DNA from: an uncultured Candidatus Saccharibacteria bacterium
GTDB taxonomy: Bacteria > Patescibacteriota > Minisyncoccia > Minisyncoccales > GWA2-38-27
Assembly: GCA_964394985.1 (NCBI GenBank)
Contig: CAYMZK010000001.1
Location: forward strand, 63,957-127,956
Length of the DNA: 64,000 nucleotides
Direction of reading: 5' to 3'
Below are positions 2,580 through 63,502 of the stretch, piece by piece. Under the pieces are notes generated by a model. The model worked only from the letters and a program-made list of their open reading frames with translations. It was not told where the DNA came from and searched no databases. A program made the translations under genes and the position numbers. Each line of letters starts with the position of its first letter. The first letter of the stretch is position 1.

Positions 2580-2688
2580 ATGCTCCTACGAATTACGAAT
2601 TTAATCGAATTGCGAATTTAATTAGTATCTTATTTTTAATTATACAAGATTATACCTTTATTGTAACACAACAAAACAAAAAGAAAAG

Positions 2689-2715
2689 ACCCCCGCTTGA
2701 CGGGAGTCCTTTCCA
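2689..2715 (-). terminator. intrinsic terminator of the giant surface-protein gene
   Basis: On the minus strand, gactccc-gtcaagc-gggggtc followed by ttttctttttgtttt, just downstream of the stop at 2740. Confidence 0.5.
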
Positions 2716-2739
2716 GCTGTGTAAAACGAGCTTACGAGA

Positions 2740-5700
2740 TTAGTACTCGAGAGCGCCACCAGTAATTGGTGTGTTATCGGTAATTGTCTCGTCTACATCG
2801 TTACTAGCAGTGTTTTGCCACTCAATACCTGAAGTTGTAGCATTTAAGCTTCCACTAGGGTTCTTCTTAAGCTCAACTTGTAAGGTCTTGGTGCTTGCAG
2901 CGCCGGTAGTATCACCAAACAATTTAACTGTCTTGGTGGTATCTTCAGCGATTTCTATGGTTGTAGTAAATGGTTCAACATTCTTGCCGTTCATTGTGGC
3001 GTAAGTACCTCCTGTTGGGTATTGATCACCAAATGAGAAACAGCTAGAACCATCGGCTACTGGATCCATTGGGTAGTAAGTACCAGCTCCGGCAATTACA
3101 TCCCAGAAAGAATCGTAACCACTTTGAGTTAATGTTGCGTAAGTTGTACTTTCGCTAACATCTTTCAAGGTTACACTGCCTGTACCAGTAACAGCTGTGG
3201 CACTACCAGTTACACAGAATTCCATTTCATTAATAGTAATTCTGTCACCAATAGCTTGTAAGTCTAATCTTAGAACTTCTTTACCAGCACCAGCGGTTTG
3301 TGAACCTGAAGGTGAACTGCTGTTCTTGCTTACAACTAAGATACCTTTGTATACTTTGTGGTTATAGGAAGCAATAATGTTTCCGGCACCAGTACCCAAA
3401 GAGTCAATGTTAGTTGCGGTTAAAGTAGTTCCAGAGTCAACACCTGTAGCAATCATGCCGTAACTTCCGGCAATAGCGCTACCGTCTTGACTTGCCCAAA
3501 CACTATCATCACCAGTATTATCACCTAGACCAATGGCCAAGGTGGTATTGTCAGTGATTTGGTCTTTAGCATTAAAGTCAACTTTAATGCTTAGAGTTGT
3601 CCAAGTGTCTTTAGGAATAACTATTTCACCAGCAGCAAGCTCAACTGTTGCATAACCGGTTTCATTTAGAGCGTATCCTCCATCGGCGCCAACTTGGTCG
3701 CCCTCAAAGTATACTTTTACTCTATTTACAGCAGCTCTTACAGCAGCGTCAGCTGAAACTCCTCCGCCTCCAGCAGCAACGTACAATCTAGTAATAGCGA
3801 CATTCTCATTTGATGCGTACATCTCATAAGTCATCATTTCATTACCATCTGTTCCGGCTACAAATTGTGCTTTTGCTGGTGTATCAGCAGCAGCAACAAT
3901 CTTTAGAGTTCCAGAAGTTGTAACTGTTTGAGCTTGACCAGTTCCATTATACCCTTCGGTAATAGCAGTTCCGGTTGACCAACCAGTTGAAGTAACAGTG
4001 GCCGTTGAGCCATCAATTAAAAACTGGTGAGGTTGTGCATCAGCACTAGCTGTTACATCGGCCTTTAAAGTCAATCTTGCGACTGTTCCCTTCTTAATTT
4101 TTAGAGGGGTCTTAAAGGTAAATGTAGTTATCGCAGTGGATGCTTGTGTTGCAGTAGATGTAGTTGTTTCAAGTTTTACAAACTCATCAACACCATCAGT
4201 AGTGTCTGGGTCGCCCCATAACTCTAAGTTGATAATGTCGTCTTCGTAACTTGTGTTAGCAGCACTACCATCAGAAGTATCTAAAGTTACGATTTGAGTA
4301 ACTTTTACATCTTCTCCAGATGTTGAAGTATCTAGATCGAAGTAAGCAAAAGTGTAATCTTGAGCGTTTCGAACTACATTACTTGCAGCTGGAGTACCAG
4401 CAGTAACAACCGTCAAGGATGGACCTTGAACAGTTTGAGTATTTCCTGTTCTAGCTGCGGTAGGAGGAACAGTATCACCACTTGATGTTGTGTAAGTGGT
4501 TTTTCCTGAACTAGCCCCTTTAGCAGTTACAGAACTGGCAGGAATCTCAAAGTCAACTGTTTCCTCAGCCTCTATAGAGCTTGAAACATTTGCCTTAATA
4601 TGAACAGTATTTGTTCCAATAGGCAAAGTATAAGCATCGGTAAAGGTTAATGTTTCATCAGTGCTTGCAGCTGTTGTTGATCCGTCTTTTGGACCAAAAA
4701 GAATGTTACCGTCATCATCGTAACCGGTGATGTTAGTAAAGTCTTCTGCGCTAGCAGTGGTTGGGTCAATTAATACTTGTGTTGAAGTAATATTAACTGA
4801 TTCACCGTAGACATTAAAGTCAAAAGCGGCAATTTCAACTTGGCTTGCGCCAATGGCAATATAACCAGTAGCTGGAGTTGCAGATGACTTTTGAACTGTT
4901 AAATAGCCTTGGTTGATTGTTTGTGTTTGACATGTACCAGCGGAAGTACAGAAATCACTTCTAGCTGGAGTTAATCCATAACTATAGGTGTTTCCAATTA
5001 CTTCAATGGTATATGCTGTTCCGTCATGAAGATCAAAAGCAACTGTTCTACCAGAGCCAGAATCGTTCATATCGGCAATAACACTTAACTCAACATAGCC
5101 ACCCTTAGCAACAGAAATATTTAAGTCATTAAAGACTGCTCTACCATCAGAGTTAAGAGAGTCAACAGTAGCTAAAGTTTCTCCTGTACCATCGTTAACT
5201 AATCTAATATTGGTTACATCAGAAGAGGCAACAGTACCGTTCTTAACGGCAGTTAGTTGCTTTACAGTAAGACCTTCAGCAGAACCTGCCACAATCTTAA
5301 CTTGGGTAAATCTAATGTCTTTGTCGTTAGGGTCAACCGTTAAGTTGGTTGTGTTCCTTGTTCCTAGTGAACCATTGTCCAGGGTTGCTGTACCAATAGT
5401 TACTGAAGAAGTAAGGGTTAAGTTATTTCCTTTTAAAGCGAAGTTTCCAGCAACTGAAGTTGCATCTGATGCAATATCATCAGCGGATTCAACACCAAAA
5501 GCTAAAACATTACCATCGTAAGAATCAGACTTTGTCATGCTTACTTTTACGGTAATAGTTTCGGTGGTATTAGCTGGAACCTCAATGGAAATGTTGCTGA
5601 AGTTGGCTTTATGGTTTGAACCAATGCTTTGGCTGTTTCCAATTTGATTACCATCTTCATCAAAAATCTTGATGTTATCAACAGCAGCGTCTTCACTAAT

Positions 5701-16596: not shown

Positions 16597-16711
16597 GAAC
16601 ATTGTAAGGGAGCGATCTACTTTCGCGCAAAGCACTATCATCGACCTTAAGAGATTTCACTTCCGTGTTCGGAATGGGAACGGGTGGAGCACTCTCAGTA
16701 TTACCCCCTTA
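16597..16711 (-). rRNA. rrf: 5S ribosomal RNA
   Basis: Minus strand contains CCACCCGUUCCCAUUCCGAACACGGAAGUGAAA. Terminal helix ttgtaaggg/cccttacaa. Confidence 0.8.
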
Positions 16712-17624: not shown

Positions 17625-18117
17625 GATATTGCCTTAATATTTTATTGTCCTCAAGTATATTGTACCATTTGAATCTTAGGACTGTAAAGATTAATGGTCA
17701 CTGCAACAATAAAACAATGAAGGTTTCATCGTTATTAGTCGGTTTGTCATCATAGATTGCTCTATGAAGTAGCAATTTCTTACTAAGACCAACTCCACTC
17801 AAGATTCGACGCCTGCAGTAGATAGGGACCAACCTGTCTCACGACGGTCTGACATATTAATCTTGTATTACTACAAGTACGGACTATATCTTTCCTTTTT
17901 TACAAGGACTAGCGTATTGTAATAGTTTGTACCTATTACCTCGTTTTAAAAAACTCAGTCTCTACGGGGACAAATTTATATCTCATTGAATCTGGGATAT
18001 AGAAAATTGTCTTCCCACGATATCATCCATTATTTCATTATATCATGAAATAATTAGGACTTCACCGTTATTAGCTAGTTTTATCTGGGCTCATGTTCAC
18101 TTACCCAGCTCGCGTGA

Positions 18118-18150
<33 letters not shown>

Positions 18151-19046
18151 GCGGTTCCACCCCCAGGATGCGCCGAGCCGACATCGCTGTCTTTGTTTTC
18201 TTCTATTTCTAGAAGGATCGGACTATATCTTCACCCAGTTGCAATCAACAACTTAGGGGCTGACGTATTATAGAAGGTTTAAAATCTTCCATCTGCTCTA
18301 TTTAGAGCAAGTCTCTACGGGGTCATTACCCAATGATGAGTAAGACTTCCCACGGTATTACCCATTATTTTATTATACCATAAAATAATTAGGGCTTCAC
18401 CGTTATAAGTCAGTTTTTTCGTCTCATTATTTAATGAGATATGATGTTACTATCATAGCACCCCGATATGTTAAGGTGCCGAACAGTGCCGTTGATATGG
18501 ACTCTCGGGCACTACTAGCCTGTTATCCCCGGGGTAACTTTTAGCTGATAATCTTCGAATTTTCTAAAAAAATTCGTCGGTTCACTAAGTTCTAGTTTCC
18601 TAACTGCGCAACAAATACGTTTTGCAGTAAAGCTGGCTTATGGCTTTGTCCGACCATTCCGATTTCCATCCGGAATTAGCCAACCTTTAAGCTTCTCCAT
18701 TACACTTTAGGAGAAAAGTGCCCCACTTAAACTACCCATTAAACACTGTCCTCCGAAAAAATCAGAGTTAGAATTAAGCCTTTAAAAGAGTGGTATTTCA
18801 CTGGCGACTCCGCTCCAACCGAAATCGGAGTTTCAAAGTCTCCCACCTATGCTACGCATCTAAAAACAAAACCCAATATCTAACTATAGTAAAGCTCCCG
18901 GGGTCTTTCCGTCTAGCTGCAGGTAACCGGCATCTTTACCGGTATTGCATTTTCACCGAGCGGTTCTTGGAGACAGTCCTCCAGTCGTGAAGCCTTTCAT
19001 GCGGGCCAGAACTTCATGTTAATTCCATTATTTCTAATGGCATAGA

Positions 19047-19511
19047 CTATATCTTCATCTCATTAAAAGAATCAAGAATCTTCTTTTTGTTGTATATTCG
19101 TTTTCCAGAAGAATTCATTACAGATACTAAATCCATAATTTCGATTATCCCTTTTTTAGTTAAATGATCTCCGTTTTTCATCTTTCGGCAAATAATTTCA
19201 AAAGTTTCAAAATCTTTTTGCTTGCTAGATAATAATGGATATCTTTTAAAATGGGGGATAATTTTTGTTAATAGAGCATTAAGATTTCTCGTTTCAAATT
19301 TTAAAGTTTTATCACAAACATTTTTTCTGATAAAGCCACACTTGAAATAATTTTTAATTAATCTTAATACTTCTGCTCTATTTTCATTTTGAGCTACTGA
19401 AAAACCAGCTACAACTTCCCAACGAAGTTTATTCTTATTTCGCGGACGAATAGAGACGCAAAAGCATCCCTCTCCATCTATATATCCGCTAATATATGAT
19501 TCTAAATTCAT
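19047..19511 (-). CDS. intron-encoded LAGLIDADG homing endonuclease
   Basis: YISGYIDGEGCFCVSI motif; located inside the 23S gene. Confidence 0.8.
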   Translation of the reverse strand: MNLESYISGYIDGEGCFCVSIRPRNKNKLRWEVVAGFSVAQNENRAEVLRLIKNYFKCGFIRKNVCDKTLKFETRNLNALLTKIIPHFKRYPLLSSKQKDFETFEIICRKMKNGDHLTKKGIIEIMDLVSVMNSSGKRIYNKKKILDSFNEMKI

Positions 19512-19844
19512 AATAAGAGTCGGCGTTTTATGATGGTTAATTTACTCCCCACCATCTTAACTAGATAGTTAAAGTCGTTACGGGGTCATTTAAGACTTCC
19601 CACGGTATTACCCATTACTTTATTATACCATAAAATAATTAGGGCTTCACCGTTATAAGCCGAATTCCTACTAGAAATCACTTTCTAGACAGGCAATTTC
19701 TTACCTGGCAAGAGATTACGCTACCTTTGGACGGTTATAGTTCATATACCGTATTTCCCTATATCGCTATAAGGCTTGGACTATATCTTCACCCACTCCC
19801 GTGATGGGAGTTAGGGGCTTGACGTGTAGTCTCTGAGGATTCTT

Positions 19845-20360
19845 CTAATAAGAGCTCAAGATTTGTTTCTTGGAGTATTTCCGTTCTCGGCCGACTAGGA
19901 TAAGATCTCTTAACTTTAAGATTTCTTCCATGCCGGTTTTTTTGAGATGTCTCTTCTTTTTAAGTATGTCTGTGATTTTACAAAAAACTTCAAACACTTT
20001 TTTCTTATTCTCTGATAACAGAGGATAATTTCTGAAAAAAGGAATGACAATTTTTATAATATCTTCCAGTTTTCTTGTTTCAAAATAACATATCCCATCC
20101 TTACGATAACGAATTGTTCCACAATTTAAGAATTTCTTAAATATTTCAGGAACCGTATCGTCTTTCTGAGAAATATTGAACGATAATGAAACCTTCCATC
20201 CATACCTATAATCATCTCTTTTGATTAGAGAGACATTAAAACTTCCTTCTCCATCCGCAAATCCACTCAAATAATAACCGAGGCTCTTACTAGCAGTCTT
20301 TCCTGCTGATTGTCCGCAATTGTACATTTTCACTGCCATAATCTTACTATTATTATACAA
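19845..20360 (-). CDS. intron-encoded LAGLIDADG homing endonuclease
   Basis: YLSGFADGEGSFNVSL motif; located inside the 23S gene. Confidence 0.8.
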   Translation of the reverse strand: MYNNSKIMAVKMYNCGQSAGKTASKSLGYYLSGFADGEGSFNVSLIKRDDYRYGWKVSLSFNISQKDDTVPEIFKKFLNCGTIRYRKDGICYFETRKLEDIIKIVIPFFRNYPLLSENKKKVFEVFCKITDILKKKRHLKKTGMEEILKLRDLILVGRERKYSKKQILSSY

Positions 20361-21822
20361 GATAACGGCGAGTAGTACAATATGCCCGGAGTTTCCAGCA
20401 TATGGTCAAGTTATTTTTTCTAAGAATTACTTCTTAGTGCGGCAACTTTCTTACCGCCGACGTTCACTGGCGCTTCGAGCAGTCAGCCCAAGTGATAAAT
20501 CACTAGGACCGCCACTGTTAACGTTCCAGCACTGGTCAGGCCTCAACCCCTATACATCTTCTTACGAATTAAGCAGGGATCTGTGTTTTTGATAAACAGT
20601 CGCCAGAGGTCTTTCGCTGCGGCCTCGCTTAAGCGAGGCAAGGCATATCCCGAAGTTACGCCTGCTGTTTTGCCGAGTTCCTTCAAGAACTTTCACTCGT
20701 TCACCTTAGTACACTAATACCAACCCACCTGTGTCGGTTTGCGGTACGGATTTCATATCCCTAACTTTTAAGAACTTTTCCAGGTAGCTTGATCACACAA
20801 GTTTGCTTCATCCGAAGAATCAGCTCAACTGCAAATCCAATAATGCACCTTGTTTCACAAACTACGTCATCCTTAAAAAAAGATATGAAAGGGCCGGAAT
20901 ATTAACCGGCTGTCCATCCCTTACTACCCTTCGGTAGCAAAGTTAGGACCGCCTAACCCTTGGCTGATTGCCATTGCCAAGGAAACCTTGGGTTTTCGGT
21001 GTGCGGGGCTTTCACCCGCATTGCGGTTACTCATGCCAACATTCTCTCTTCTTAACGCTCCACCAAACCTCACGATTTAGCTTCAGTGCATTAAGAATGC
21101 TCCCCTACCGATTATTGTAAACAATAATCCCTTATCTTCGGCATATAACTTGAGTCCCGTAAATTTTTGGCGCAAAATTCCTTAGCTAGTAAGCTGTTAC
21201 GCACTTTTTGAAAGATAGCTGCTTCTAAGCTAACTTCCTAGCTATCAATGGAGTTTCACTTCCTTCAAAACACTTAGTTATAATTTAGGGGCCTTAGATG
21301 AAGATCTGGGCTGTTTCCCTTTCGACCATGGAGCTTAGCCCCCACAGTCTAACTGTTTGTAAACATTTTCCGGCATTCGGAGTTTGATTGGAAGATCCGA
21401 GCGAAAGCCCAAGAAATTCCATTCAGTGCTCTACCTCCAGAAAACTATATACAAATGCTAGCCCTAAAGCTATTTCGGGGAGAACCAGCTATTACCAAGC
21501 TCGATTAGCTTTTCACTCCTTACCACAACTCATCCCAGAGTATTGCACGGCTCAAGGGTTCGGGCCTCCTTCTATCTTTCGATAGAGTTCACCCTGGTCA
21601 TGGCAAGCTCGCTTGGCTTCGGGTCTTAAGCATTCTCTCAATTGTTCGCGCTTTTAACACTCGCTTTCGCTACGCCTCAATCCCGGAAGGATTCAGACAA
21701 AGAAAACACTTAAACTCGTTGGCTCATTCTTCAATAGGCACGCCATCACCCCGCTAAAAGCGGAGCTCTGACTCCTTGTAAGCAAAATGGTTTCAGGTAC
21801 TATTTCACCGCCCTCACCGGGC

Positions 21823-21862
<40 letters not shown>

Positions 21863-22602
21863 AGATATCGTAGTATTTAGCCTTGGCCGATTAGTCCGGC
21901 CTGTTTCCTACAGGGTTTTCTTTCCCCATAGTACTCAAGTAAAATAACAAGGAGCACGAATAAATTTTTAAGTACAGGACTATTACCTTCTATGGTCACC
22001 CTTTCCAGGGATGTTCCTCTAACCTATTCGCCTTTTTATTCTCCCTCGGCAAACATTCTATTTCCCAAAAAGAGAAATAGAATACTCCCGACGTTATTCC
22101 CTTACAACCCCACATTAAAAAATATGGTTTGGGCTTTTCCCTTTTCGCTCGCCGCTACTTGGGGAATAAAATTATTTTTCTTTTCCTCCGCTTACTGGGA
22201 TGTTTCACTTCAGCGGGTTCGCCATCCGACATACATCGGATTAATATGGGTTTACCATATTGCGTTTACGCATTCGGAAATCTCCGGGTCAAAGGTTGCT
22301 AAACACCTCACCGAAGCTTATCGCAGTCACGCCACGTCCTTCATCGCCTTGATATCCCTAGGCATCCACCATTTGCTCTTAATAATGTTGGCTAATAATT
22401 AATAATTGTAATTGCTAGACAGTATTCAATTGACAACGTTCTTACCCATTCAGGATAAATAAAAAACCGCTTGGGGAGCGATTATTCGGACATACTATAA
22501 AATTCAGACTATATCCTACTCCCTTAGTTTTTTATATTTTATTTTCTTTATCATTGCACTATCAATCTTAACAAAACCAAGAAAGAGTGTCAATAGCAAA
22601 AA

Positions 22603-53868: not shown

Positions 53869-54566
53869 ATATTTGAGTTTAGATAAATAACGTCTTTTCT
53901 TTCCACTACAACTTCCCATCCTTTTTCTTTTGCATGATCATATAGCTTCTGATTTGGATTAAAGCAAATTGGCCTTTCTACTATTTCTAAAAAGGGAATG
54001 TCACTTTCGGTATCACCCATGCCAATTGATTCCTTCAAGCTAAGTTTTTCTTTTTCAATCGCCCTTCTTAAAACCTCCGCTTTATCTTCAATAAAATCAA
54101 GATAAAGAACTTCTCCAGTAAGCTTTTTTTGATTGTCTATTTCAAGTATTCGGCCATATGATTTATCAAAGCCCATTTTCTCACAAAATTCTTCAACTAA
54201 TATTTTGGGAGAATGAGAAATAGCTAAAAGATAATAGTTTTTCTTTTTTAATTCCTCTATAAAATCTCTGGAGTATTTATAAACCCGGTTTCCGTGAAAA
54301 GAAATAACCTTTTTAGATATTTCTAAAAAATCATCATATTTAACTCCCTTAATGTTTTCTATAAAAGCAGTAATAACCGCATGAATATAATTATCATAAG
54401 AACCGCTTCTGTTGAGCCAGTTATTATATGCTTCTTGGTATGACTCTTTTGTTTCTTTAGAAAAAATCCCCTCTTGAATAAGAGCATCTGTTAACTCTAT
54501 TAATAGACTAGATCTAAAGATAGTCCCGTCAATATCAAAAATAGCCACCTTCTTCTTTTCTTCCAT
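53865..54566 (-). CDS. HAD-superfamily hydrolase
   Basis: Motif I VAIFDIDGTIF; 233 aa. Confidence 0.7.
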   Translation of the reverse strand: MEEKKKVAIFDIDGTIFRSSLLIELTDALIQEGIFSKETKESYQEAYNNWLNRSGSYDNYIHAVITAFIENIKGVKYDDFLEISKKVISFHGNRVYKYSRDFIEELKKKNYYLLAISHSPKILVEEFCEKMGFDKSYGRILEIDNQKKLTGEVLYLDFIEDKAEVLRRAIEKEKLSLKESIGMGDTESDIPFLEIVERPICFNPNQKLYDHAKEKGWEVVVERKDVIYLNSNI

Positions 54567-54890
54567 AAATTTAATTATTTATTTTTATCCTCTAGAAATT
54601 TTTCAAAAGACCGGTCGTAGGTCTTTTCTGCTTCTTTTGAAAAATAGCAACCCGGCAACTCCCCTCTTTCCCGATGATATTTCACACACTCACAACAAAG
54701 CCCTTTCCTCTCACAAGGATAACTACAATTACAATTATTTAAATTTTCCTCTCTTCTGCACTCCATAATTTTTTATTATTTGAGTAAAGCCGGACTTCAC
54801 CCAAGACTTACTTTCTTTAAGATTAACACTTTAGATGCCAAAAAACAACTTACCTACTTCTTTTTATTTTTTTACTCCTGACCCCTTTTT
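54560..54890. repeat. ~330-bp exact duplication unit (copy 2 at 60487-60825)
   Basis: Identical sequence including the Cys-rich ORF and the upstream leader with the ctcctgacccc motif. Confidence 0.8.
54575..54766 (-). CDS. 63-aa Cys-rich small protein (8 Cys); identical duplicate at 60502-60693
   Basis: [42 protein letters not shown]... Gene and ~130 bp of upstream sequence are duplicated exactly. Confidence 0.55.
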
Positions 54891-55182: not shown

Positions 55183-56349
55183 TTAGAAAAATCCGGTTAT
55201 TTCACGATATTGATGCTGCTCTAAAATGTGAAGGATACGTTCGTTGTCAAAAATAACGACAACAATCATAGAACGAAACCGATTAGGATGTTTAAAGTTT
55301 CGCAAACGACTTATGTCCAAATATCGTCTACCCAAACCATCTTCACAAAAAATACTATAAGCGGGAGAAGTAGACATAAGCATGCCATTTTTTGTCCACG
55401 GACGCTCTAATGATATTTCAAAAACTCGTAAAGCTGTGTCGCCATTACTATTCTTGGCATACTTCACAAAAGGAAGCCAGTGCATCCATTCCCCTATTTT
55501 TTCTCCGTTAGAAAGGATAAAACCAACGGGACCATAACCTTTTTGTAGTTCCGAAAGATAAAGCACTCTTGGAGGGCCAGGAGGTTCTGAATGATGAAGA
55601 AAGTTACTTGGATTATCTATAAAAATCATACTATCTTCAAAATTTTCCTTATAACCGCTCTTGCCCAAAAAAGTTACAAAGTGCCTACATTCGTCAAACG
55701 AATAGCCAAGCTCCTTAGAGCTAATAAAGCACAAGGAGTTTCCTTTCTTAATGATTTCGGACAAAGTAACTTCTTCGCTTTTAACGGAGGCAAATTCCTC
55801 AAACTGATACCAGTATATTCCGGTATCCGAAGCTACAAAAATAACTGCCGTTATGTAGTTAAAAATAACGGAAAAAACCACTTCTCCTTTTCTAACACAG
55901 GTGATAGAGCCAGTAGCTCCCGTTATAGAAACAGGTGATTCAAACATCTCCTCCCAGAGGGTTTCAGCATCGCAATCCTTCAGAAGATCCCCTACTTTTG
56001 CCAACTGATTTCCATCGGAGACCTTTTCAAGAAATAATTTAAGTTGCTTAGATCTGTCAGTAGGATCAGAAAAAAACATTAATGGTTGTCTGGTAGGATC
56101 TGCCCCTGTTGGCCAACGTTTGTGAGCGAACTCATCCAGTTCTTCGGTTATAAGAATGCTGTGACGATCAAAATCTCGAAGACGTTCAGAAATAACAAGC
56201 TCTGGTATAGCATCAAGCCCAAGAGTATCTCCTTTTCCGTAATTAACCTTACGTAAAGTTTCAGCACAATCAACATCCATTAATTCTTGCCAAGCCCTTA
56301 AAAGAGCTTTAATGCAAACATCACAATACTGTCTTTCTATTCCTTGCAT
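55183..56349 (-). CDS. hypothetical protein (388 aa), GC-richer than surroundings
   Basis: Long ORF with SD. A weak IMPase-like signal (ITEEL...FSDPTDRS) is not enough for a call. Confidence 0.45.
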   Translation of the reverse strand: MQGIERQYCDVCIKALLRAWQELMDVDCAETLRKVNYGKGDTLGLDAIPELVISERLRDFDRHSILITEELDEFAHKRWPTGADPTRQPLMFFSDPTDRSKQLKLFLEKVSDGNQLAKVGDLLKDCDAETLWEEMFESPVSITGATGSITCVRKGEVVFSVIFNYITAVIFVASDTGIYWYQFEEFASVKSEEVTLSEIIKKGNSLCFISSKELGYSFDECRHFVTFLGKSGYKENFEDSMIFIDNPSNFLHHSEPPGPPRVLYLSELQKGYGPVGFILSNGEKIGEWMHWLPFVKYAKNSNGDTALRVFEISLERPWTKNGMLMSTSPAYSIFCEDGLGRRYLDISRLRNFKHPNRFRSMIVVVIFDNERILHILEQHQYREITGFF

Positions 56350-56774: not shown

Positions 56775-57053
56775 TTTTCTACTCCTTAATTAGTAATGAC
56801 ATCTTTCAACCGAAAACAATTTTCGGTTTTTGTGCTATTTTTAGTATAGCAAATAACAATGCTTTTTTCAACATTTCATATTAACTCATAAAATTCAGAG
56901 TTGACACCATTTTTTGAGCCCGGTCCTCTTCATTATACCTCACCTCAATATCAATATAATTTAAACAAAAAATGTGCTTAACCCGGTTAAGCACATTTTG
57001 TATAAAAGACGGATCCCTAGCTTAAAAAAGCTCCTGGCCCCTTTTACTCCCTT

Positions 57054-57725
57054 TTACGCTCCCCTTTTACACTTCTTTATAATTGTATTTAGAGAATTAA
57101 CTAAACTTATTATTTTAAAATCACTTATTATTTTTTTTAAATCATAGCCCCCTAACCACATCTTTTCAATTATTTCTCTAATTTCTTGATGAACTTGATA
57201 CCCCCTATCTTCAATATTTTTGAATTCTGAATTATTAATTACTGTAAGGACTTCTTTTAATTCCTGAATTCCATTATTTGTATAGCCTAATTTTTTGCAA
57301 AAATCCATCCATTTGTCTAAAAAGGCAATATGAGAAAATTCATGTATAATTGTGCTAGGGATGGGGTTAGAAAAATTATAAGAAGAAGCTTTTACCGAAA
57401 GCAAAATGCATTTCTTCTCAAGATATATGGCCGATGTTTTGGTAGTAACGATATAACACTTAAGGATTTCTGGGAGATTGTATTCATAAATTTTAAAAAT
57501 AGTTTTCTTAAGATCCTCATCTCTATTCCATAAAGTATAATATTCTAGAATTTTTTCTTGGGCTATTTTTTTATCTTCTTCTGTAATAGAAATCTTATCT
57601 GGAAATTTCTTCCCAAACATTTCTTTATATTTTAGAGTTGATTCCCAAGCCCTCTTATTTATTTGTTCATCATATTTAAAATCCATAAAATTAGAAGGGT
57701 GGACCATCAATGCTTGACAGTCCAC
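57054..57725 (-). CDS. hypothetical HExxH (zinc-metallopeptidase-motif) protein
   Basis: TIIHEFSHIAF contains HExxH; 223 aa. Sits directly downstream of the candidate precursor peptide and the radical-SAM maturase. Confidence 0.5.
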   Translation of the reverse strand: MDCQALMVHPSNFMDFKYDEQINKRAWESTLKYKEMFGKKFPDKISITEEDKKIAQEKILEYYTLWNRDEDLKKTIFKIYEYNLPEILKCYIVTTKTSAIYLEKKCILLSVKASSYNFSNPIPSTIIHEFSHIAFLDKWMDFCKKLGYTNNGIQELKEVLTVINNSEFKNIEDRGYQVHQEIREIIEKMWLGGYDLKKIISDFKIISLVNSLNTIIKKCKRGA

Positions 57726-57742
57726 CCCTTGCTAAGAAGGGC

Positions 57743-57868
57743 AAGGCATAAGTTAAACGCAACCGTCACAGTTGCATTCGTAACATGGGGAAGGACAACC
57801 ATCATTGGATGTCCTTATTCCTTGCGGAATTTCGCTGAGCACCTCAGTAATCTTCAGCATTTTAATTA
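57743..57868 (-). CDS. 41-aa Cys-rich peptide, candidate RiPP precursor, absent from the ORF track
   Basis: Hand translation of the minus strand gives MEELIKMLKITEVLSEIPQGIRTSNDGCPSPCYECNCDGCV. GGAG lies 8 nt upstream of the ATG. It is 22 nt downstream of the rSAM/SPASM stop. Local GC is above background. Confidence 0.5.
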
Positions 57869-57889
57869 ATTCTTCCATGATACTTTCTC

Positions 57890-58936
57890 CTACTCAATAA
57901 ATGGTTTTACAATGTCTTCTGGGTTATCGATCGCCCATCTTAAAGGACATCCTCCGCCACAATCTTGATACATTATACAATCTCTACACTTGAACGAAGG
58001 ATATGATCCTACCTGGTTGTAATAACCCAACACAGTTTCTGAATTTATCCACTGCCTTAATGAATCAGCGTTAACAAAATCGGTTCCGTAATGCCCTATT
58101 GGATAACCAAATAGAGCGTTACACATTAAAATACTTCCACGCTCGTCCCATATCAAGCCCTTACCCTTCCTAAGCTGACATACGCTAATGATTTGATCTT
58201 TTTTCTTAAGCTGTTTGATAAATTCACGTTCGAAGAGACAAAAAGGAATCATCATTTCAAACACTAACTTGCCTTTTGTAATTTTATCCAACTCAGGATA
58301 ATCCCTCATAATATTGGATGCCAACTCACGAGAGGGAACCATGTAAGTTGAGTCTGGCTTATTGTCCGTAAAAGTCGTGGAACAAAAATTAATCTGAACT
58401 CCTTTCGCTCCACAATCCATTGCAAATTGAACCATCTCCGGAAGACTGCCACAGTAGAAAGAATTATAGGTAATTGCGATTTGGCAATAAAACGCAACAC
58501 AAGCTCTTTCTACCCCTTTTTTCATTTTGTCAAAATCAGCTGAGCCAGAAACTTCTTTAAATTGTTGTGGACCCCAAGCTTTGAGGGAAAGCCCCATTTT
58601 GTCATTTGGATTTCTTTGATATTCTTCCCAAAATTCATCATCTCCAAAACGAAGAGCGTTTGTTACTAAAATACTCTTTATCCCTATCTCTTTACAGAAA
58701 CGATTATATTTAGGAAGAGCATCCCACAAAGTAGGCTCTCCCCCAATAGGAAGCATCCCTTCAACCCCTATTTCTTTTGACAAGAGCGTTAAATCTCTTG
58801 CCAACTGAAAAGACATTTCGTTTGCCTGATAATCTGTCCCTTCAGCATAGCACCAACGACATCTCAGATTACATCTCCTGTTAACTGTAAGCCAAGACAT
58901 TTTTGGTTCAATTCTATTCTTCTTTCCTTCAAACAT
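57890..58936 (-). CDS. radical SAM enzyme with C-terminal SPASM domain (RiPP-maturase-like)
   Basis: CNLRCRWCY is the CxxxCxxC radical-SAM cluster. C-terminal CRDCIMYQDCGGGCP is the SPASM CxxCx5CxGGC motif. 348 aa. Confidence 0.8.
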   Translation of the reverse strand: MFEGKKNRIEPKMSWLTVNRRCNLRCRWCYAEGTDYQANEMSFQLARDLTLLSKEIGVEGMLPIGGEPTLWDALPKYNRFCKEIGIKSILVTNALRFGDDEFWEEYQRNPNDKMGLSLKAWGPQQFKEVSGSADFDKMKKGVERACVAFYCQIAITYNSFYCGSLPEMVQFAMDCGAKGVQINFCSTTFTDNKPDSTYMVPSRELASNIMRDYPELDKITKGKLVFEMMIPFCLFEREFIKQLKKKDQIISVCQLRKGKGLIWDERGSILMCNALFGYPIGHYGTDFVNADSLRQWINSETVLGYYNQVGSYPSFKCRDCIMYQDCGGGCPLRWAIDNPEDIVKPFIE

Positions 58937-59092: not shown

Positions 59093-59401
59093 ATGAAAAA
59101 GAAATACCACCGTCTAACTCTAGCTGATCGAGTTCCTAGGGGAGAGCTTAAGAAGGAATTAATGAGAGGATTAAGAAGAGAAAGAAGATTAAGACAGAGT
59201 AGAAAATATGCTCATTATCGCAAACAGAGAATTAAAGACATAGTAAGCATCTCTGAAAGGCCTAAAGAAGTAAAAGATAGAATTGTTCCTGGACACTGGG
59301 AAGGAGACCTAATAGTGGGAAAACAACACAGTAGCGCACTAGGAACATTGGTAGAAAGGACCACTAGATTAACTCTTTCTACGAGAAGTTTTATCAATTA
59401 A
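59093..59401 (+). pseudogene. IS30-family transposase fragment
   Basis: [12 protein letters not shown], the IS30 signature. Only 102 aa, with no DDE domain. Confidence 0.6.
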
Positions 59402-59514: not shown

Positions 59515-60489
59515 TTAAATATTTGGGTTTAATATTTTTTCGGCTGGAGAAATTCCTCCCAAAACCTTGTGAGGGAAATAATTCCAGACATCGTTTATTA
59601 AGTATAACATTCTTTCAAATTCTTCCGGACTTTGATTTTGATCAAGCTTTTTTACTATTTCATCTAATTCTTTATGGCTTTTTTCATTATAAATAATTTC
59701 TTTAATCTCATCTATAGTTATATTCGCTTTATATTTTTTGATTAAAGCCAGAAGGTTTTTTTCTATTTCTTTTCTTTTTTTAGCGATACTTTCTTTTGTC
59801 TCTTTTTTCACCGATTTTGCCATATCTGGATATACAAACATTTTGTCATCAAGACCGCTCATTTCAAGCTCATCCATCAACTCATTAGCAATATCGCCCT
59901 TAATACCCTCTTCTCTCCCAAAATTTTTTTCTAAGGCAGCAAGTCGCATCTGCTTTCTGGTTTCTGGGTTATTCTTTTCTTTTTTTATTTTTTCTTGCTC
60001 TTTTTTACTTAAATTTAAAAAGGATTTTTTTGTTTCTTGAGCAACCTCATAATTTTTTTTAACAAACTCACTTCCTAAACTTAGGCTTTTCGCTCGATTT
60101 ATCCACGCAAGACCTTCTTCAAAATCAAATTCACTAATATAACTACTGCCTAAATCAAGATATGCCTTGTAATCCATTAAATTTAAATTTACAGCATTTC
60201 TTAAATCCTTTCTTCCTTCCTCTGTCTTTCCTAGCATAATTTTTGTCCAGCCCAAACTTCTAATAACTTCCGGGTGATTAGGATCTAATCTATCTGCCTC
60301 TAAAAAAGATTTTTCTGCCAAAGAGAATAACCCTGTTTTTAATCTGGCGACTCCTAAAAGATAATACCCATAGGCATTATTTGGAAATTTTTTAATAATT
60401 TTTTTCAAAGCCAAAATTGCTTCAATAAATTTATTTTCATTCATTAAAGAATCTACTTCTTCAATATATTTTTCAAAATCTTTTTTCAT
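59515..60489 (-). CDS. TPR repeat protein
   Basis: Multiple TPR-like units (AYGYYLLGVARLKTGLFSLAEKSFLEADRLDPNH...). Confidence 0.6.
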   Translation of the reverse strand: MKKDFEKYIEEVDSLMNENKFIEAILALKKIIKKFPNNAYGYYLLGVARLKTGLFSLAEKSFLEADRLDPNHPEVIRSLGWTKIMLGKTEEGRKDLRNAVNLNLMDYKAYLDLGSSYISEFDFEEGLAWINRAKSLSLGSEFVKKNYEVAQETKKSFLNLSKKEQEKIKKEKNNPETRKQMRLAALEKNFGREEGIKGDIANELMDELEMSGLDDKMFVYPDMAKSVKKETKESIAKKRKEIEKNLLALIKKYKANITIDEIKEIIYNEKSHKELDEIVKKLDQNQSPEEFERMLYLINDVWNYFPHKVLGGISPAEKILNPNI

Positions 60490-60501
60490 AAGTTTACTTA
60501 T

Positions 60502-60693
60502 TTATTTATTTTTATCCTCTAGAAATTTTTCAAAAGACCGGTCGTAGGTCTTTTCTGCTTCTTTTGAAAAATAGCAACCCGGCAACTCCCCTCTTTCCCG
60601 ATGATATTTCACACACTCACAACAAAGCCCTTTCCTCTCACAAGGATAACTACAATTACAATTATTTAAATTTTCCTCTCTTCTGCACTCCAT
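60502..60693 (-). CDS. 63-aa Cys-rich small protein (duplicate)
   Basis: Identical to 54575-54766. Confidence 0.55.
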
Positions 60694-60836
60694 AATTTTT
60701 TATTATTTGAGTAAAGCCGGACTTCACCCAAGACTTACTTTCTTTAAGATTAACACTTTAGATGCCAAAAAACAACTTACCTACTTCTTTTTATTTTTTT
60801 ACTCCTGACCCCTTTTTTATTTGTGTAGTGCCATGG

Positions 60837-61973
60837 TTATTTAATAAAAATATTAATGTAATTCTTGTATGCATAACTTCTGTCGTATGTTCCTTTCTCG
60901 TCTTGTGCATACAAAATTCCTATCTTTATAAACCTATCTATAACTTTTTGAGCCCCTGCACGAGTAAAACCTGTCCAATCCATGACTTTTTTTGTATTCA
61001 CAATTGGTGAACCAAAAAGTTTTTGCAATACCAAAACGCCACTCTCAGATTCTCTTTTTGCAAGAGTTTGTATTTTAAGTATATCGATATCTCTTAGTTT
61101 CCTAATCTGACTTGTTATTTCTATTGATTCTTCTGCCGTTTCAATAACACCATCAAGGAAGAAATCTGCCCAGCTCTCAACATTACCATCATGATAATCA
61201 TCAAGTTTTTGATAATACACCTTTTGGTGTTTTTTAAAATAAGAAGACAGAAACAAGACAGGGTTCTCCAATAGATTCCTATGACATAATAAAAGTGTTA
61301 TCAGCAAACGCCCGGTTCTTCCGTTACCATCCAAAAATGGATGTATGGTTTCAAATTGTGCGTGCATAATTCCAATGTGTAATAACGGGAGTACTTTTTC
61401 CTCTTCATGAAGAAACCTTTCCAAATCATTTAGCGTGCGTTGCATTTCATCAACAGGAGACGGAACAAAATGTGCGTTATCCGGTCTTGTGCCCCCGATC
61501 CAATTTTGAGTTTTTCTAAATTCACCTGGATCAGAAAAATGTGTAGCTCGCGCCCCGGTCATCAGCTCTTTATGTATTTCTCTTATTAATCGCAGAGACA
61601 GCGGTAAATCCTTAAGACGACTTAAACCGTAATTCATTGCTTTTATATAATACAAAATGTCATCAGCATCTGTATCGTCTACACTAATACCCGCGTCCTT
61701 TTCAAGAGCATCAATGATGGTCGCCTTTGTCCCTTCTATCTGCGCTGAAGAAGTCGCGTCTTTCGCCACGAACATTTTCAAAAAGAAATCAACATCAGGA
61801 AGAGCACTTTCTGTAGTAGTTCCATCAAGCTTACCTACCAAACGGTCTGCTTTAGCGATTTTTAGTAAAATGTTTTGAGGTATTTCAAAAAGTCCTTTTG
61901 GAGGGAAAGGATTAGGAATAAGAGCTGAATACCCTTCTTTTTGCTTTATTTTTTTACCTATTTCTGTATTCAT
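60837..61973 (-). CDS. Fic/DOC family protein
   Basis: Fic motif HPFLDGNGRTGRLL; 378 aa. Confidence 0.8.
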   Translation of the reverse strand: MNTEIGKKIKQKEGYSALIPNPFPPKGLFEIPQNILLKIAKADRLVGKLDGTTTESALPDVDFFLKMFVAKDATSSAQIEGTKATIIDALEKDAGISVDDTDADDILYYIKAMNYGLSRLKDLPLSLRLIREIHKELMTGARATHFSDPGEFRKTQNWIGGTRPDNAHFVPSPVDEMQRTLNDLERFLHEEEKVLPLLHIGIMHAQFETIHPFLDGNGRTGRLLITLLLCHRNLLENPVLFLSSYFKKHQKVYYQKLDDYHDGNVESWADFFLDGVIETAEESIEITSQIRKLRDIDILKIQTLAKRESESGVLVLQKLFGSPIVNTKKVMDWTGFTRAGAQKVIDRFIKIGILYAQDEKGTYDRSYAYKNYINIFIK

Positions 61974-62044
61974 ATACTTAGTATCTATTGTCTTTATAGA
62001 TATATACTATCTTACATTATAGTATATATTTCGTCAATACATAC

Positions 62045-62093
62045 ATACTATCTCTCAAAACTTCATTCTCAAAAATATAATTTCCCGTCCACG
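62045..62093 (-). other. 43-bp remnant identical to part of the type III mod gene (44748-44795)
   Basis: cattctcaaaaatataatttcccgtccacgcttcctcaatttc is identical in both places. Translated on the minus strand it encodes [15 protein letters not shown], as in Mod. Confidence 0.55.
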
Positions 62094-62104
62094 CTTCCTC
62101 AATT

Positions 62105-63502
62105 TCATAATTTTATTTTTAGCTCGGATAATTTGCTCACGATCCATTTTTTCGCTTCTTGTTCGTCTTTTTCAATCGCCATTTCCACGCCTCGCTTGGC
62201 AATTTCAAGTAAAAATTTTGATAATTTTCTATCATTAAACGATTTTTCAATTAACTTTTTGATTTCTTTTTGTTTATCTACTTTTAAAATAGGAATTAAG
62301 GTTGCTTTTACTTGATCTGGTCTCCAATGGTTGATAATTGATCCGCCAGCGTCACGCTCAATTTGTTTCTGCACGATTACGGAATTTAAAACAAGTGTTA
62401 AGTACTCTGGTATTATCTGTTTGTTATCCATTTTTAATCTCAAAATACCACCAGATACAATCATTTTTTGCGGTTCTTCGTTCAAAAAATAGGCCGTGCC
62501 GGGCGTTGCGTCTTTTGAAAGCAGAATTTCACCTTTCTTTGGCTGATGTGTTTTTAATGTTTCGTATATTTCTTTGGATAAAAATTGCTGATTATTGGTA
62601 GAAAGCTCAAATTTTGAAAGATTGCTCACGCGGACAAAGGGCACACCGTTTTCTTGATATGCTTCGCTTCCCGGTTCAACACTCTTTTTCACTTTTACCA
62701 AATTTCCCAGCTCATCAAATCCGCTCTTGTATTTTTTCACCGCTTTAACGATTTCGTCATATTTCGGCTGAAAATATTCTGCGTCAAAACGATCTGATTC
62801 TTTGGTGTTGGAAAAGTTTTTGACAAAAGCGAGTTCGTGTTTTGGCTTCCAGCTTAAAAGTCTGAGTTCGGAAAGGAGTAATTGCTCGGCTTGGGAATAG
62901 AGATAGTCTGATTCTAAAACTAACTTGCAACATTGAGAAACTATTTTGTTTAATATTTCTCTTAACGCCAAAATATTTTTAGGTATCGGTAAATTTAATA
63001 AATCGTGTTCTTGAAATCTTGGGTGCTGAGTTCCGCCCTGTCCCCAAAATAAAATCTTTTGAACAAACTTGGTTAATAAAAAGGGAGTCAAGAAAGATAT
63101 ATTACCTTTATCCTTACCTCTCAATACAAAAAATTCAGTTGTTAAATATGCTTTATTAAGAAAGGTTGGTATGTATGCGATTTGTTTTAAATACGGTCTA
63201 AGTCTTGAGATTATGACATCTCCGCTTTTCGCCCTTCTTTTTAGGCTAATTCTTTCCTCTGTTTGTGCAAGATTCTTTGTAAGAATATGTGAAAATGCTG
63301 CTCCTGTATCATAAATTTCAACATTAGAATCTTTTGGAATTTCGTTTTTTTTAATACTTAAGATAATATCACTCAAAGAAATATTTGAGTTATCTTTTAA
63401 AATTCTGAGAGTATCCAGCTTTTCCGGATGATAATATTCCGAATCAATTCTAAAATCAGAATTTTCTTTTACCGTTTTATAATTTACAACTGAATATTGC
63501 AT
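62105..63502 (-). CDS. restriction-modification specificity subunit (HsdS-like, two target-recognition domains)
   Basis: Two internally similar halves (DFRIDSEYYHPEKLD against DRFDAEYFQPKYDE) and a conserved central spacer (PIPKNILALREILNKIV); 465 aa. Confidence 0.55.
   Translation of the reverse strand: MQYSVVNYKTVKENSDFRIDSEYYHPEKLDTLRILKDNSNISLSDIILSIKKNEIPKDSNVEIYDTGAAFSHILTKNLAQTEERISLKRRAKSGDVIISRLRPYLKQIAYIPTFLNKAYLTTEFFVLRGKDKGNISFLTPFLLTKFVQKILFWGQGGTQHPRFQEHDLLNLPIPKNILALREILNKIVSQCCKLVLESDYLYSQAEQLLLSELRLLSWKPKHELAFVKNFSNTKESDRFDAEYFQPKYDEIVKAVKKYKSGFDELGNLVKVKKSVEPGSEAYQENGVPFVRVSNLSKFELSTNNQQFLSKEIYETLKTHQPKKGEILLSKDATPGTAYFLNEEPQKMIVSGGILRLKMDNKQIIPEYLTLVLNSVIVQKQIERDAGGSIINHWRPDQVKATLIPILKVDKQKEIKKLIEKSFNDRKLSKFLLEIAKRGVEMAIEKDEQEAKKWIVSKLSELKIKL

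Follow-up and report, generated by a model that had tools for sequence, protein, structure and literature searches.

Ranthi- and sactipeptides, such as freyrasin (PapA/PapB), SCIFF (CteA/CteB) and subtilosin (AlbA), are produced from loci in which a radical S-adenosylmethionine (radical SAM) enzyme with a SPASM domain adjoins a short precursor gene encoding a leader and a Cys-rich core. A locus of similar layout lies in a 64,000-nt stretch of DNA from an uncultured Candidatus Saccharibacteria bacterium (contig CAYMZK010000001.1; hereafter the window, whose positions serve as coordinates throughout). Here, three consecutive open reading frames (ORFs) on the minus strand encode a 348-aa radical SAM/SPASM enzyme (57890-58936), a 41-aa peptide (57753-57878) and a protein with an HExxH motif (57054-57725 and 223 aa if GTG-started). 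We read them as a three-gene cassette for a ribosomally synthesised and post-translationally modified peptide (RiPP), comprising a maturase that lacks a RiPP recognition element (RRE), its precursor and an HExxH leader peptidase, and put the probability of this reading at roughly 0.55. Synteny, leader homology and purifying selection strongly support a small ORF that would specify a precursor with leader and Cys-rich core, next to a putative maturase and an HExxH partner, and we infer with high confidence that the peptide is the substrate of the radical SAM enzyme. These same lines of evidence bear out the pairing of a RiPP precursor with a radical SAM/SPASM enzyme that was proposed in a preliminary description of the locus; the sacti- or ranthipeptide class also named there is an analogy only, since no curated maturase or precursor family was matched and no RRE domain was found.

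Closest described systems

The radical SAM enzyme of the window shows partial similarity, in NCBIfam and PDB comparisons, to PapB, StsB, the SCIFF maturase, CteB and SkfB, and the Asp/Asn-rich cores encoded beside it and its relatives recall PapB, which makes Cys-Asp thioethers. It differs from these ranthi- and sactipeptide enzymes in having neither an N-terminal RRE nor the last Cys of the SPASM motif, and in scoring far below the equivalog cut-offs. The precursors, too, belong to no curated peptide family, and their cores are far richer in Cys (~31%, with CxC repeats) than those of the known classes.

The same logic of a small peptide, a radical SAM enzyme (the epimerase YydG) and an HExxH metalloprotease (YydH) in one operon is found in the epipeptide system yydFGHIJ/LiaK. 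The radical SAM family retrieves YydG from the PDB as a distant match (2e-4). NF058609, the model of the YydH/LiaK epipeptide maturation metalloproteases, is matched by only 1 of 58 members of the HExxH family (E = 0.0012) and not by the window protein. Moreover, the substrates here are Cys-rich, the HExxH protein of the window is soluble, with no evident membrane segments, and a yydIJ-like transporter is missing. In triceptide systems, radical SAM-SPASM enzymes are fused with, or encoded next to, HExxH enzymes that depend on alpha-ketoglutarate (alpha-KG) (ChlB/ChlH, FxsB family; TIGR04267/IPR026337). The window protein does not match TIGR04267, its invariant Glu145 would instead fit a gluzincin protease, and the precursors have Cys-rich sequences in place of aromatic three-residue cyclophane motifs.

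Two further comparisons concern single components. Anaerobic sulfatase-maturing enzymes (anSMEs), which act on a Cys in a peptide, are alike in size and layout (~350-370 aa, with the radical SAM core directly followed by SPASM and no RRE) and give the highest query template modelling (TM) score, 0.66-0.69. They differ in that the window enzyme has a dedicated adjacent leader-bearing peptide in place of a sulfatase and lacks the final SPASM Cys. Metallothioneins share the small size, ~30% Cys and dominant CxC/CxxC spacing of the cores, a likeness that is compositional only, for metallothioneins have neither a cleavable conserved leader nor dedicated radical SAM/HExxH partners.

The preliminary description considered the trio undescribed. 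All three families are indeed uncurated: scans with Pfam, NCBIfam and PADLOC placed none of the three genes, 5 homologous peptides, 3 representatives of HExxH clusters or 58 HExxH members in a curated family, neither the peptide nor the HExxH protein nor the radical SAM subfamily has a Pfam or NCBIfam model of its own, and a literature search found no description of the cassette family. As an architecture, however, the trio is not unprecedented, as illustrated by epipeptide yydFGH and by triceptide radical SAM-HExxH fusions. It is a widespread, uncurated radical SAM/SPASM RiPP-like family centred on candidate phyla radiation (CPR) bacteria, with precursors of unusual composition and an HExxH partner that is also uncurated, and is not categorically new.

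Organisation of the cassette

The genes follow one another in the order radical SAM/SPASM, precursor and HExxH within ~1.9 kb. The TAG stop codon of the radical SAM gene (57890-57892) overlaps a GGAG Shine-Dalgarno (SD) sequence (57887-57890), which lies 8 nt upstream of the ATG of the peptide (57876-57878), leaving a gap of 11 nt between stop and start. The SD sequence had been recognised before, as had the CxxxCxxC and C-terminal SPASM motifs of the ORF at 57890-58936, and all of these were found again. By contrast, the position given earlier for the small ORF (57743-57868) is 10 nt off, and the spacing of 22 nt from the radical SAM gene is twice the measured one. Nor is the locus richer in GC than its surroundings, as had been thought: the cassette has a GC content of 35.2% and the whole window 35.1%, with 38.5%, 41.3% and 27.3% for the radical SAM, peptide and HExxH genes, respectively.

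Downstream of the peptide, an HExxH ORF is present as described, with the motif HEFSH encoded at 57330-57344, yet its start is likelier to be an ATG at 57686 than the GTG at 57725. The ATG, which yields a protein of 210 aa (57054-57686, minus strand), is backed by gene callers and 24 homologs, and we place the start there because the homologs of the window protein all begin M-[IDN]-F-[KE]-Y.

Between the stop codon of the precursor gene and this ATG, and spanning the GTG at 57725, lies a conserved 16-bp RNA hairpin followed by a U-rich stretch (57695-57729, minus strand), which gave a terminator-like match. Equivalent strong hairpins occupy the same position in four to five orthologous loci, and compensatory double changes are seen in 8 of the 16 pairs. 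The hairpin is probably a partial terminator or an mRNA-stabilising element that sets the ratio of the precursor to the downstream gene; attenuating stem-loops follow precursor genes in other RiPP operons, and the arrangement here resembles them. A second, intrinsic-terminator-like hairpin with a T-run (56969-56999, minus strand) consists of a 14-bp stem and then TTGTTTAAAT. The succession of a hairpin after the precursor and a terminator-like hairpin after the HExxH gene speaks for a single three-gene unit that has its end at about 56970.

The small ORF is a gene under purifying selection

The 41-aa product (MEELIKMLKITEVLSEIPQGIRTSNDGCPSPCYECNCDGCV) can be divided into a leader that extends from residue 1 to about residues 24 to 27 (MEELIKMLKITEVLSEIPQGIRTSNDG) and a Cys-rich core (CPSPCYECNCDGCV). 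At the orthologous loci of the closest radical SAM homologs, a small ORF is found at the same place in every case, and the 41-aa ORF is preserved beside radical SAM enzymes of 66-77% identity. Between the window and locus L085, whose radical SAM enzyme is 77% identical, residues 22-41 (RTSNDGCPSPCYECNCDGCV) are unchanged despite 8 synonymous codon changes, with 0 non-synonymous ones, while the leader carries 7 non-synonymous changes. In L085, L088 and L089, stop codons interrupt the 68-aa ORF on the opposite strand (57663-57869, plus), in agreement with the earlier suspicion that it is spurious. The small ORF is a genuine gene under purifying selection.

Homology to other precursors was assessed with a hidden Markov model (HMM) of the leader only, which was built on 49 other loci and excluded the clade of the window and all Cys-rich cores. 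Among 1230 stop-to-stop segments of the window, the 41-aa ORF is the sole significant match (E = 3.5e-5), making its homology independent of Cys-richness.

The peptide is unannotated, as had been stated, since its exact sequence is missing from a collection of ~15 billion predicted proteins. Its relatives are either uncalled or named 'hypothetical protein'; a peptide-profile search of 5.8 billion proteins returned 8 matches at E <= 0.01, 7 of them nameless and 1 a 'hypothetical protein'.

Recurrence across related loci

There are 524 database relatives of the radical SAM protein, and the 120 best-listed of these are 35-100% identical to it; the aligned part amounts to 81% of its length or more in all but one, which is truncated. 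Named examples include Patescibacteria, Pacebacteria, Vogelbacteria and similar groups. When one genome per GTDB species was scanned, 203 loci emerged and 80 were retained. By label, 44 of these belong to CPR/Patescibacteria (Saccharibacteria, Parcubacteria-type groups, WWE3, CPR2) and 15 to Firmicutes, and 9 are given as unclassified 'bacterium'; labels of Gammaproteobacteria, Myxococcales, Nitrospirota or other groups account for the remainder. Searching metagenomes with the single radical SAM protein gave only 2 loci.

In a first screen, ~55 loci were found to have a small, Cys-rich ORF directly downstream of the radical SAM gene, preceded by a strong SD sequence (typically AAAGGAGGTGAT) and usually starting within ~30 nt of the radical SAM stop. 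With the leader HMM, precursors are detected at 65 of the 85 related loci, the majority of them metagenome-assembled genomes (MAGs) of Patescibacteria; the count includes precursors that come after the HExxH gene, that lie on the opposite strand or that sit upstream of the radical SAM gene. The preliminary description would have been refuted if peptide homologues never adjoined radical SAM genes in related genomes; they do so at these 65 loci. Aligned only ahead of the first core Cys, the leaders follow the consensus M-[DEK]-x-[LF]-[LI]-x-x-[LF]-x-[VLI]-[ST]-G-[IV]-x(4-6)-P-x-G-[LI]. At 52 of the 85 loci, the 2.5 kb downstream contain an HExxH ORF on the same strand, and the three components co-occur across related loci.

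Some loci carry additional genes. Locus L035, from a Saccharimonas MAG, has tandem precursor genes (3313-3468 and 3527-3649) with related leaders and different cores downstream of one radical SAM gene. At 13 loci (including L005, L007, L008, L016, L017, L031, L073 and L077), a second, longer radical SAM/SPASM gene (~435-490 aa) lies no more than 3 kb from the cassette; its N-terminal extension could be an RRE. HisKA_7TM-type sensor histidine kinases occur near the cassette in 6-7 loci (L088, at 2622-4088, L070, L009, L014, L023, L027 and L034), and an ABC exporter in ~6, neighbours that may hint at a link to signalling or export.

The radical SAM/SPASM enzyme and its putative chemistry

The cluster motif C22xxxC26xxC29 identifies the 348-aa protein as a radical SAM enzyme, for which the Pfam model PF04055 scores 51.1 bits against a cut-off of 29.5 (E = 2.3e-13). 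CxxxCxxC is kept in 111 of 119 homologs, the other 8 being gapped at those columns. The SPASM model TIGR04085 is matched just over its cut-off (27.6 bits versus 27), and the motifs present are C253-x13-G-x4-C272 and C317-x2-C320-x5-C326-x3-C330 (CRDCIMYQDCGGGC); across the 119 homologs, these six Cys are conserved to 98-100%. The canonical SPASM motif, CX9-15GX4C ... CX2CX5CX3C ... C, comprises seven Cys and binds two auxiliary 4Fe-4S clusters. Its last Cys is missing here, as the tail beyond CX2CX5CX3C (median length 18 residues) contains no Cys in 103 of 116 sequences; conserved instead are the upstream C185 (92%) and C233 (99%). This pattern may reflect a non-canonical ligation of the auxiliary clusters.

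The enzyme falls into no curated subfamily, because every NCBIfam equivalog scores far below its cut-off: MoaA 56 versus 325, anSME (TIGR03942) 41.6 versus 349.45, StsB 39.5 versus 625, PapB 39.3 versus 340 and the SCIFF maturase (TIGR03974) 26.3 versus 425. The anSME score disposes of an identity as an anaerobic sulfatase maturase, which the preliminary description had named as a competing assignment. A viperin-like defence enzyme was likewise considered and rejected: the PADLOC pVip matches (42 bits) span residues 18-125, the generic radical SAM core, and NF038283 scores 41.8 versus 180.

There is no N-terminal RRE, since the CxxxCxxC motif begins at residue 22, in agreement with an AlphaFold2 model (pLDDT 92) that has a single strand ahead of the motif. 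A PqqD-like ORF was not found within the cassette either, according to the ORF list and a Pfam scan. The model superposes on the peptide-modifying enzymes anSME and SuiB (TM 0.66-0.69), ChlB (0.64) and CteB (0.62), which we count in favour of a peptide maturase, and the matches to SuiB and CteB are confined to their catalytic and SPASM parts. Similarly, a profile of the family retrieves SuiB, PqqE, CteB, Tes, SkfB, MoaA and anSME from the PDB at 1e-15 to 4e-9.

In 68 cores, 31.5% of residues are Cys, 14.2% are Asp and 9.6% are Gly, and each core holds 2-24 Cys (median 6). CxC is the commonest spacing of consecutive Cys pairs (51%; CxxC 20%), and its middle residue is Asp in 39%, Asn in 11%, Lys in 10%, Arg in 8% and Gln in 7% of cases. 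G-D often stands directly ahead of the first Cys, and few residues follow the last one. The cores are hypervariable in length and sequence, as exemplified by CGSQGSCQRC, CKCRCANCKCNCYCSQCKNC and CDPPPDDCANPDDCDCDCAPPH. A leader that is conserved and a core that diversifies are together the hallmark of a RiPP precursor; neither a fixed cofactor precursor nor a cluster-binding partner bears it.

The likeliest modification would be the formation of intramolecular thioethers from Cys sulfur to carbon atoms of neighbouring residues, with Asp and Asn as the commonest acceptors, as in ranthi- and sactipeptide chemistry. It ranks first because characterised radical SAM/SPASM enzymes acting on Cys-rich cores form S-C bonds and because Asp and Asn, as potential acceptors, are enriched next to Cys in the cores. 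Thioethers are the usual outcome for such enzymes on Cys-rich RiPP cores (AlbA, SkfB, CteB, PapB, QhpD), and Asp and Asn are known thioether acceptors (PapB, QhpD, NxxcB). We hold this assignment, an analogy, tentatively, somewhat short of even odds.

The same cassette might alternatively catalyse a different radical SAM reaction on the Cys-rich core. Cys might be oxidised to formylglycine or a thioaldehyde in the manner of anSME, or the reaction might be an epimerisation, a C-C cross-linking or a new one on CxC motifs, the product being a metallothionein-like, metal- or Fe-S-binding peptide that is possibly intracellular. Several features point in this direction, namely the anSME-like architecture, with anSME giving the only full-length NCBIfam alignment (residues 19-335 against positions 8-329 of 363 in the model) along with its TM of 0.66-0.69; the metallothionein-like composition of the cores; the variant SPASM pattern with two conserved upstream Cys; YydG-type epimerases among the distant PDB matches; and the scarcity of exporters, which most loci lack. 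Yet the score on the anSME equivalog is far below its cut-off, hypervariable cores speak against one fixed cofactor-like product, and thioethers are what characterised enzymes of this kind usually make. We regard another chemistry as rather unlikely.

A broader and still less probable proposition is that Patescibacteria carry a phylum-wide, hitherto unrecognised RiPP class, in which an RRE-less radical SAM enzyme with a non-canonical SPASM domain performs a new reaction on CxC-repeat, metallothionein-like cores to give a metal- or redox-active or signalling peptide that acts in episymbiosis. Its product would possibly be intracellular, as most loci lack an exporter, and would be no classical secreted thioether antibiotic. 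No characterised counterpart of the CxC-repeat cores was found. Membership in an existing RiPP class is not claimed, because no curated model is reached, an RRE is lacking, the SPASM Cys are atypical and the cores consist of CxC repeats.

The HExxH partner

BLAST clustering of neighbouring ORFs produced three downstream clusters, found at 22 loci (~155-240 aa), 20 loci including the window (~200-290 aa) and 10 loci (~130 aa), and an HExxH motif is present in all three. Each tends to pair with a particular type of leader and core: the ...HEIxHLEHPEA cluster with K/R/N-rich CxC cores, the ...HEIIHLHIQ cluster with DCDCDCAP-type cores and the ...LHE[GA]LHFQF cluster with short Saccharibacteria cores. 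An exhaustive profile search expands the family to 322 representatives at 50% identity.

Across 58 members with a mean identity of 17%, H115, E116, H119 and E145 are invariant, and K144, N152, D160, R170 and W177 nearly so. The HExxH motif is thus followed by an invariant Glu 25 residues downstream, and the predicted model has a zincin fold with mostly gluzincin neighbours; on this model, the protein shows the gluzincin-type combination of HExxH, a following Glu ligand and a zincin fold. The window protein belongs to no Pfam or NCBIfam family, and a profile of the family gave no significant match to PDB sequences (best astacin, E = 0.34, and IrrE, E = 3.3). Peptidase_M78 is matched below threshold by 2 of the 58 members.

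The HExxH...E pattern and the mostly gluzincin neighbours favour a zinc peptidase, and we lean towards this role for the protein, with rather more confidence than an even bet. The earlier proposal of a leader peptidase accordingly stands as far as signature and predicted fold go, and is weakened by the fact that alpha-KG/Fe hydroxylases share that fold: HExxH zincin-fold proteins of RiPP clusters can be Fe/alpha-KG hydroxylases, even dual-function ones (PMC12636437, PMC13060819), which keeps the peptidase role conditional.

Alternatively, the protein could be an alpha-KG/Fe(II) HExxH-type tailoring oxygenase, or another non-proteolytic enzyme, that hydroxylates Asp/Asn of the core, with the leader removed by a protease encoded elsewhere or never removed. 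Such HExxH enzymes hydroxylate Asp, His, Gln and Pro and recurrently partner, or are fused with, radical SAM/SPASM RiPP enzymes (PMC12636437, PMC13060819). The cores of the cassette family are rich in Asp, and the (near-)invariant Arg170 and the frequent His166 are conceivable ligands of alpha-KG or metal. Against this stand the invariant HExxH and Glu145, a gluzincin ligand pattern, and the variability of His166 in the wider family. In addition, TIGR04267 is not matched by the window protein at E <= 0.1 and is matched weakly (0.0039) by a single one of the 58 members. An O2-dependent enzyme would also be a poor fit beside an O2-labile radical SAM enzyme and in carriers that are mostly Patescibacteria, which are generally anaerobic fermenters. 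We consider this alternative improbable.

Finally, that the small Cys-rich protein is merely an accessory metal- or Fe-S-binding partner of the radical SAM enzyme (an electron donor or scaffold), whose true substrate is encoded elsewhere, or a chance ORF, is very improbable: small Cys-rich proteins can bind metals, but a conserved N-terminal leader with a hypervariable C-terminus is the opposite of what a cluster-binding partner should show, two precursor copies are present at some loci (L035), and synonymous-only divergence together with conservation across 65 loci excludes a chance ORF.

Proposed pathway and points that weigh against it

Under the reading of the locus as a three-gene RiPP cassette, the RRE-less radical SAM/SPASM enzyme would recognise the leader directly and modify the core by 5′-deoxyadenosyl-radical chemistry, using its auxiliary Fe-S clusters. 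The HExxH...E zincin-like protein, acting in the cytoplasm, would then cut off the leader, and the hairpin after the precursor gene would tune expression of the downstream gene.

A number of observations weigh against this pathway. The enzyme matches no curated sacti-, ranthi- or SCIFF maturase model in NCBIfam, and the lack of an RRE domain leaves leader recognition unexplained. The window peptide and 5 homologous peptides have no NCBIfam or Pfam match at E <= 1. In the first screen, which counted Cys, neither partner was found at 11 of the 71 loci with enough flanking DNA, and these partnerless loci mostly carry Firmicutes labels. Some cores hold just 2-3 Cys (CGSQGSCQRC, KCKICH), and others are near-pure CxC repeats with few acceptor residues per Cys. 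A secreted product is not evident, because an exporter is missing from the cassette of the window and an ABC transporter lies near only ~6 of 81 related loci. For the last step, alpha-KG/Fe HExxH hydroxylases not only share the zincin fold but also partner radical SAM enzymes (PMC12636437).

Genomic surroundings

Three neighbouring genes were considered as further components and rejected. A 388-aa ORF (55183-56349), which has no Pfam, NCBIfam or PADLOC match, and a 66-aa ORF are not conserved at orthologous loci, and the terminator follows the HExxH gene; a Cys-rich DUF6485 gene is missing from all 89 related loci. This last gene, encoding 63 aa, is present in two identical copies (54575-54766 and 60502-60693), each within one copy of a 300-nt direct repeat of 97% identity (54556-54855 and 60483-60782, spaced 5927 nt). 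Between the repeats lie the 388-aa orphan gene, the cassette, an IS30 transposase fragment (59093-59401) and a TPR protein, an arrangement suggesting that the bracketed segment may have been duplicated or be mobile. Beside it are a SoFic-type Fic protein (60837-61973; PADLOC 348 bits) and the specificity subunit of a type I restriction-modification system (62105-63502), so that the region at 60837-63502 looks like a defence island from its gene content.

Elsewhere in the window, a 23S rRNA match extends over 4362 nt (18026-22387), compared with 2925 nt in the model, and contains ORFs at 19047-19511 and 19845-20360. These ORF-bearing stretches are probably introns or insertion elements, which have been reported in CPR rRNA genes. 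A 5S rRNA gene is located at 16604-16711.

Implications

The cassette recurs across Saccharibacteria, Parcubacteria-type lineages, WWE3 and CPR2 and is mostly missed by standard gene calling, the peptide being unannotated here as well as at most related loci. With no fewer than 65 natural pairs of leader and core, extreme in Cys content, the family is a resource, and its radical SAM/SPASM enzyme must manage leader recognition in the absence of an RRE. Whether the uncurated HExxH family comprises proteases or oxygenases is directly testable, and at ~1.9 kb the cassette is small enough for immediate heterologous reconstitution. CPR/Patescibacteria genomes measure only ~1 Mb. In two antiSMASH-based surveys, the Patescibacteria genomes yielded no biosynthetic gene clusters (PMC12282132, PMC11613949); if the reading given here is true, the cassette would mean that these bacteria do invest in modified peptides.

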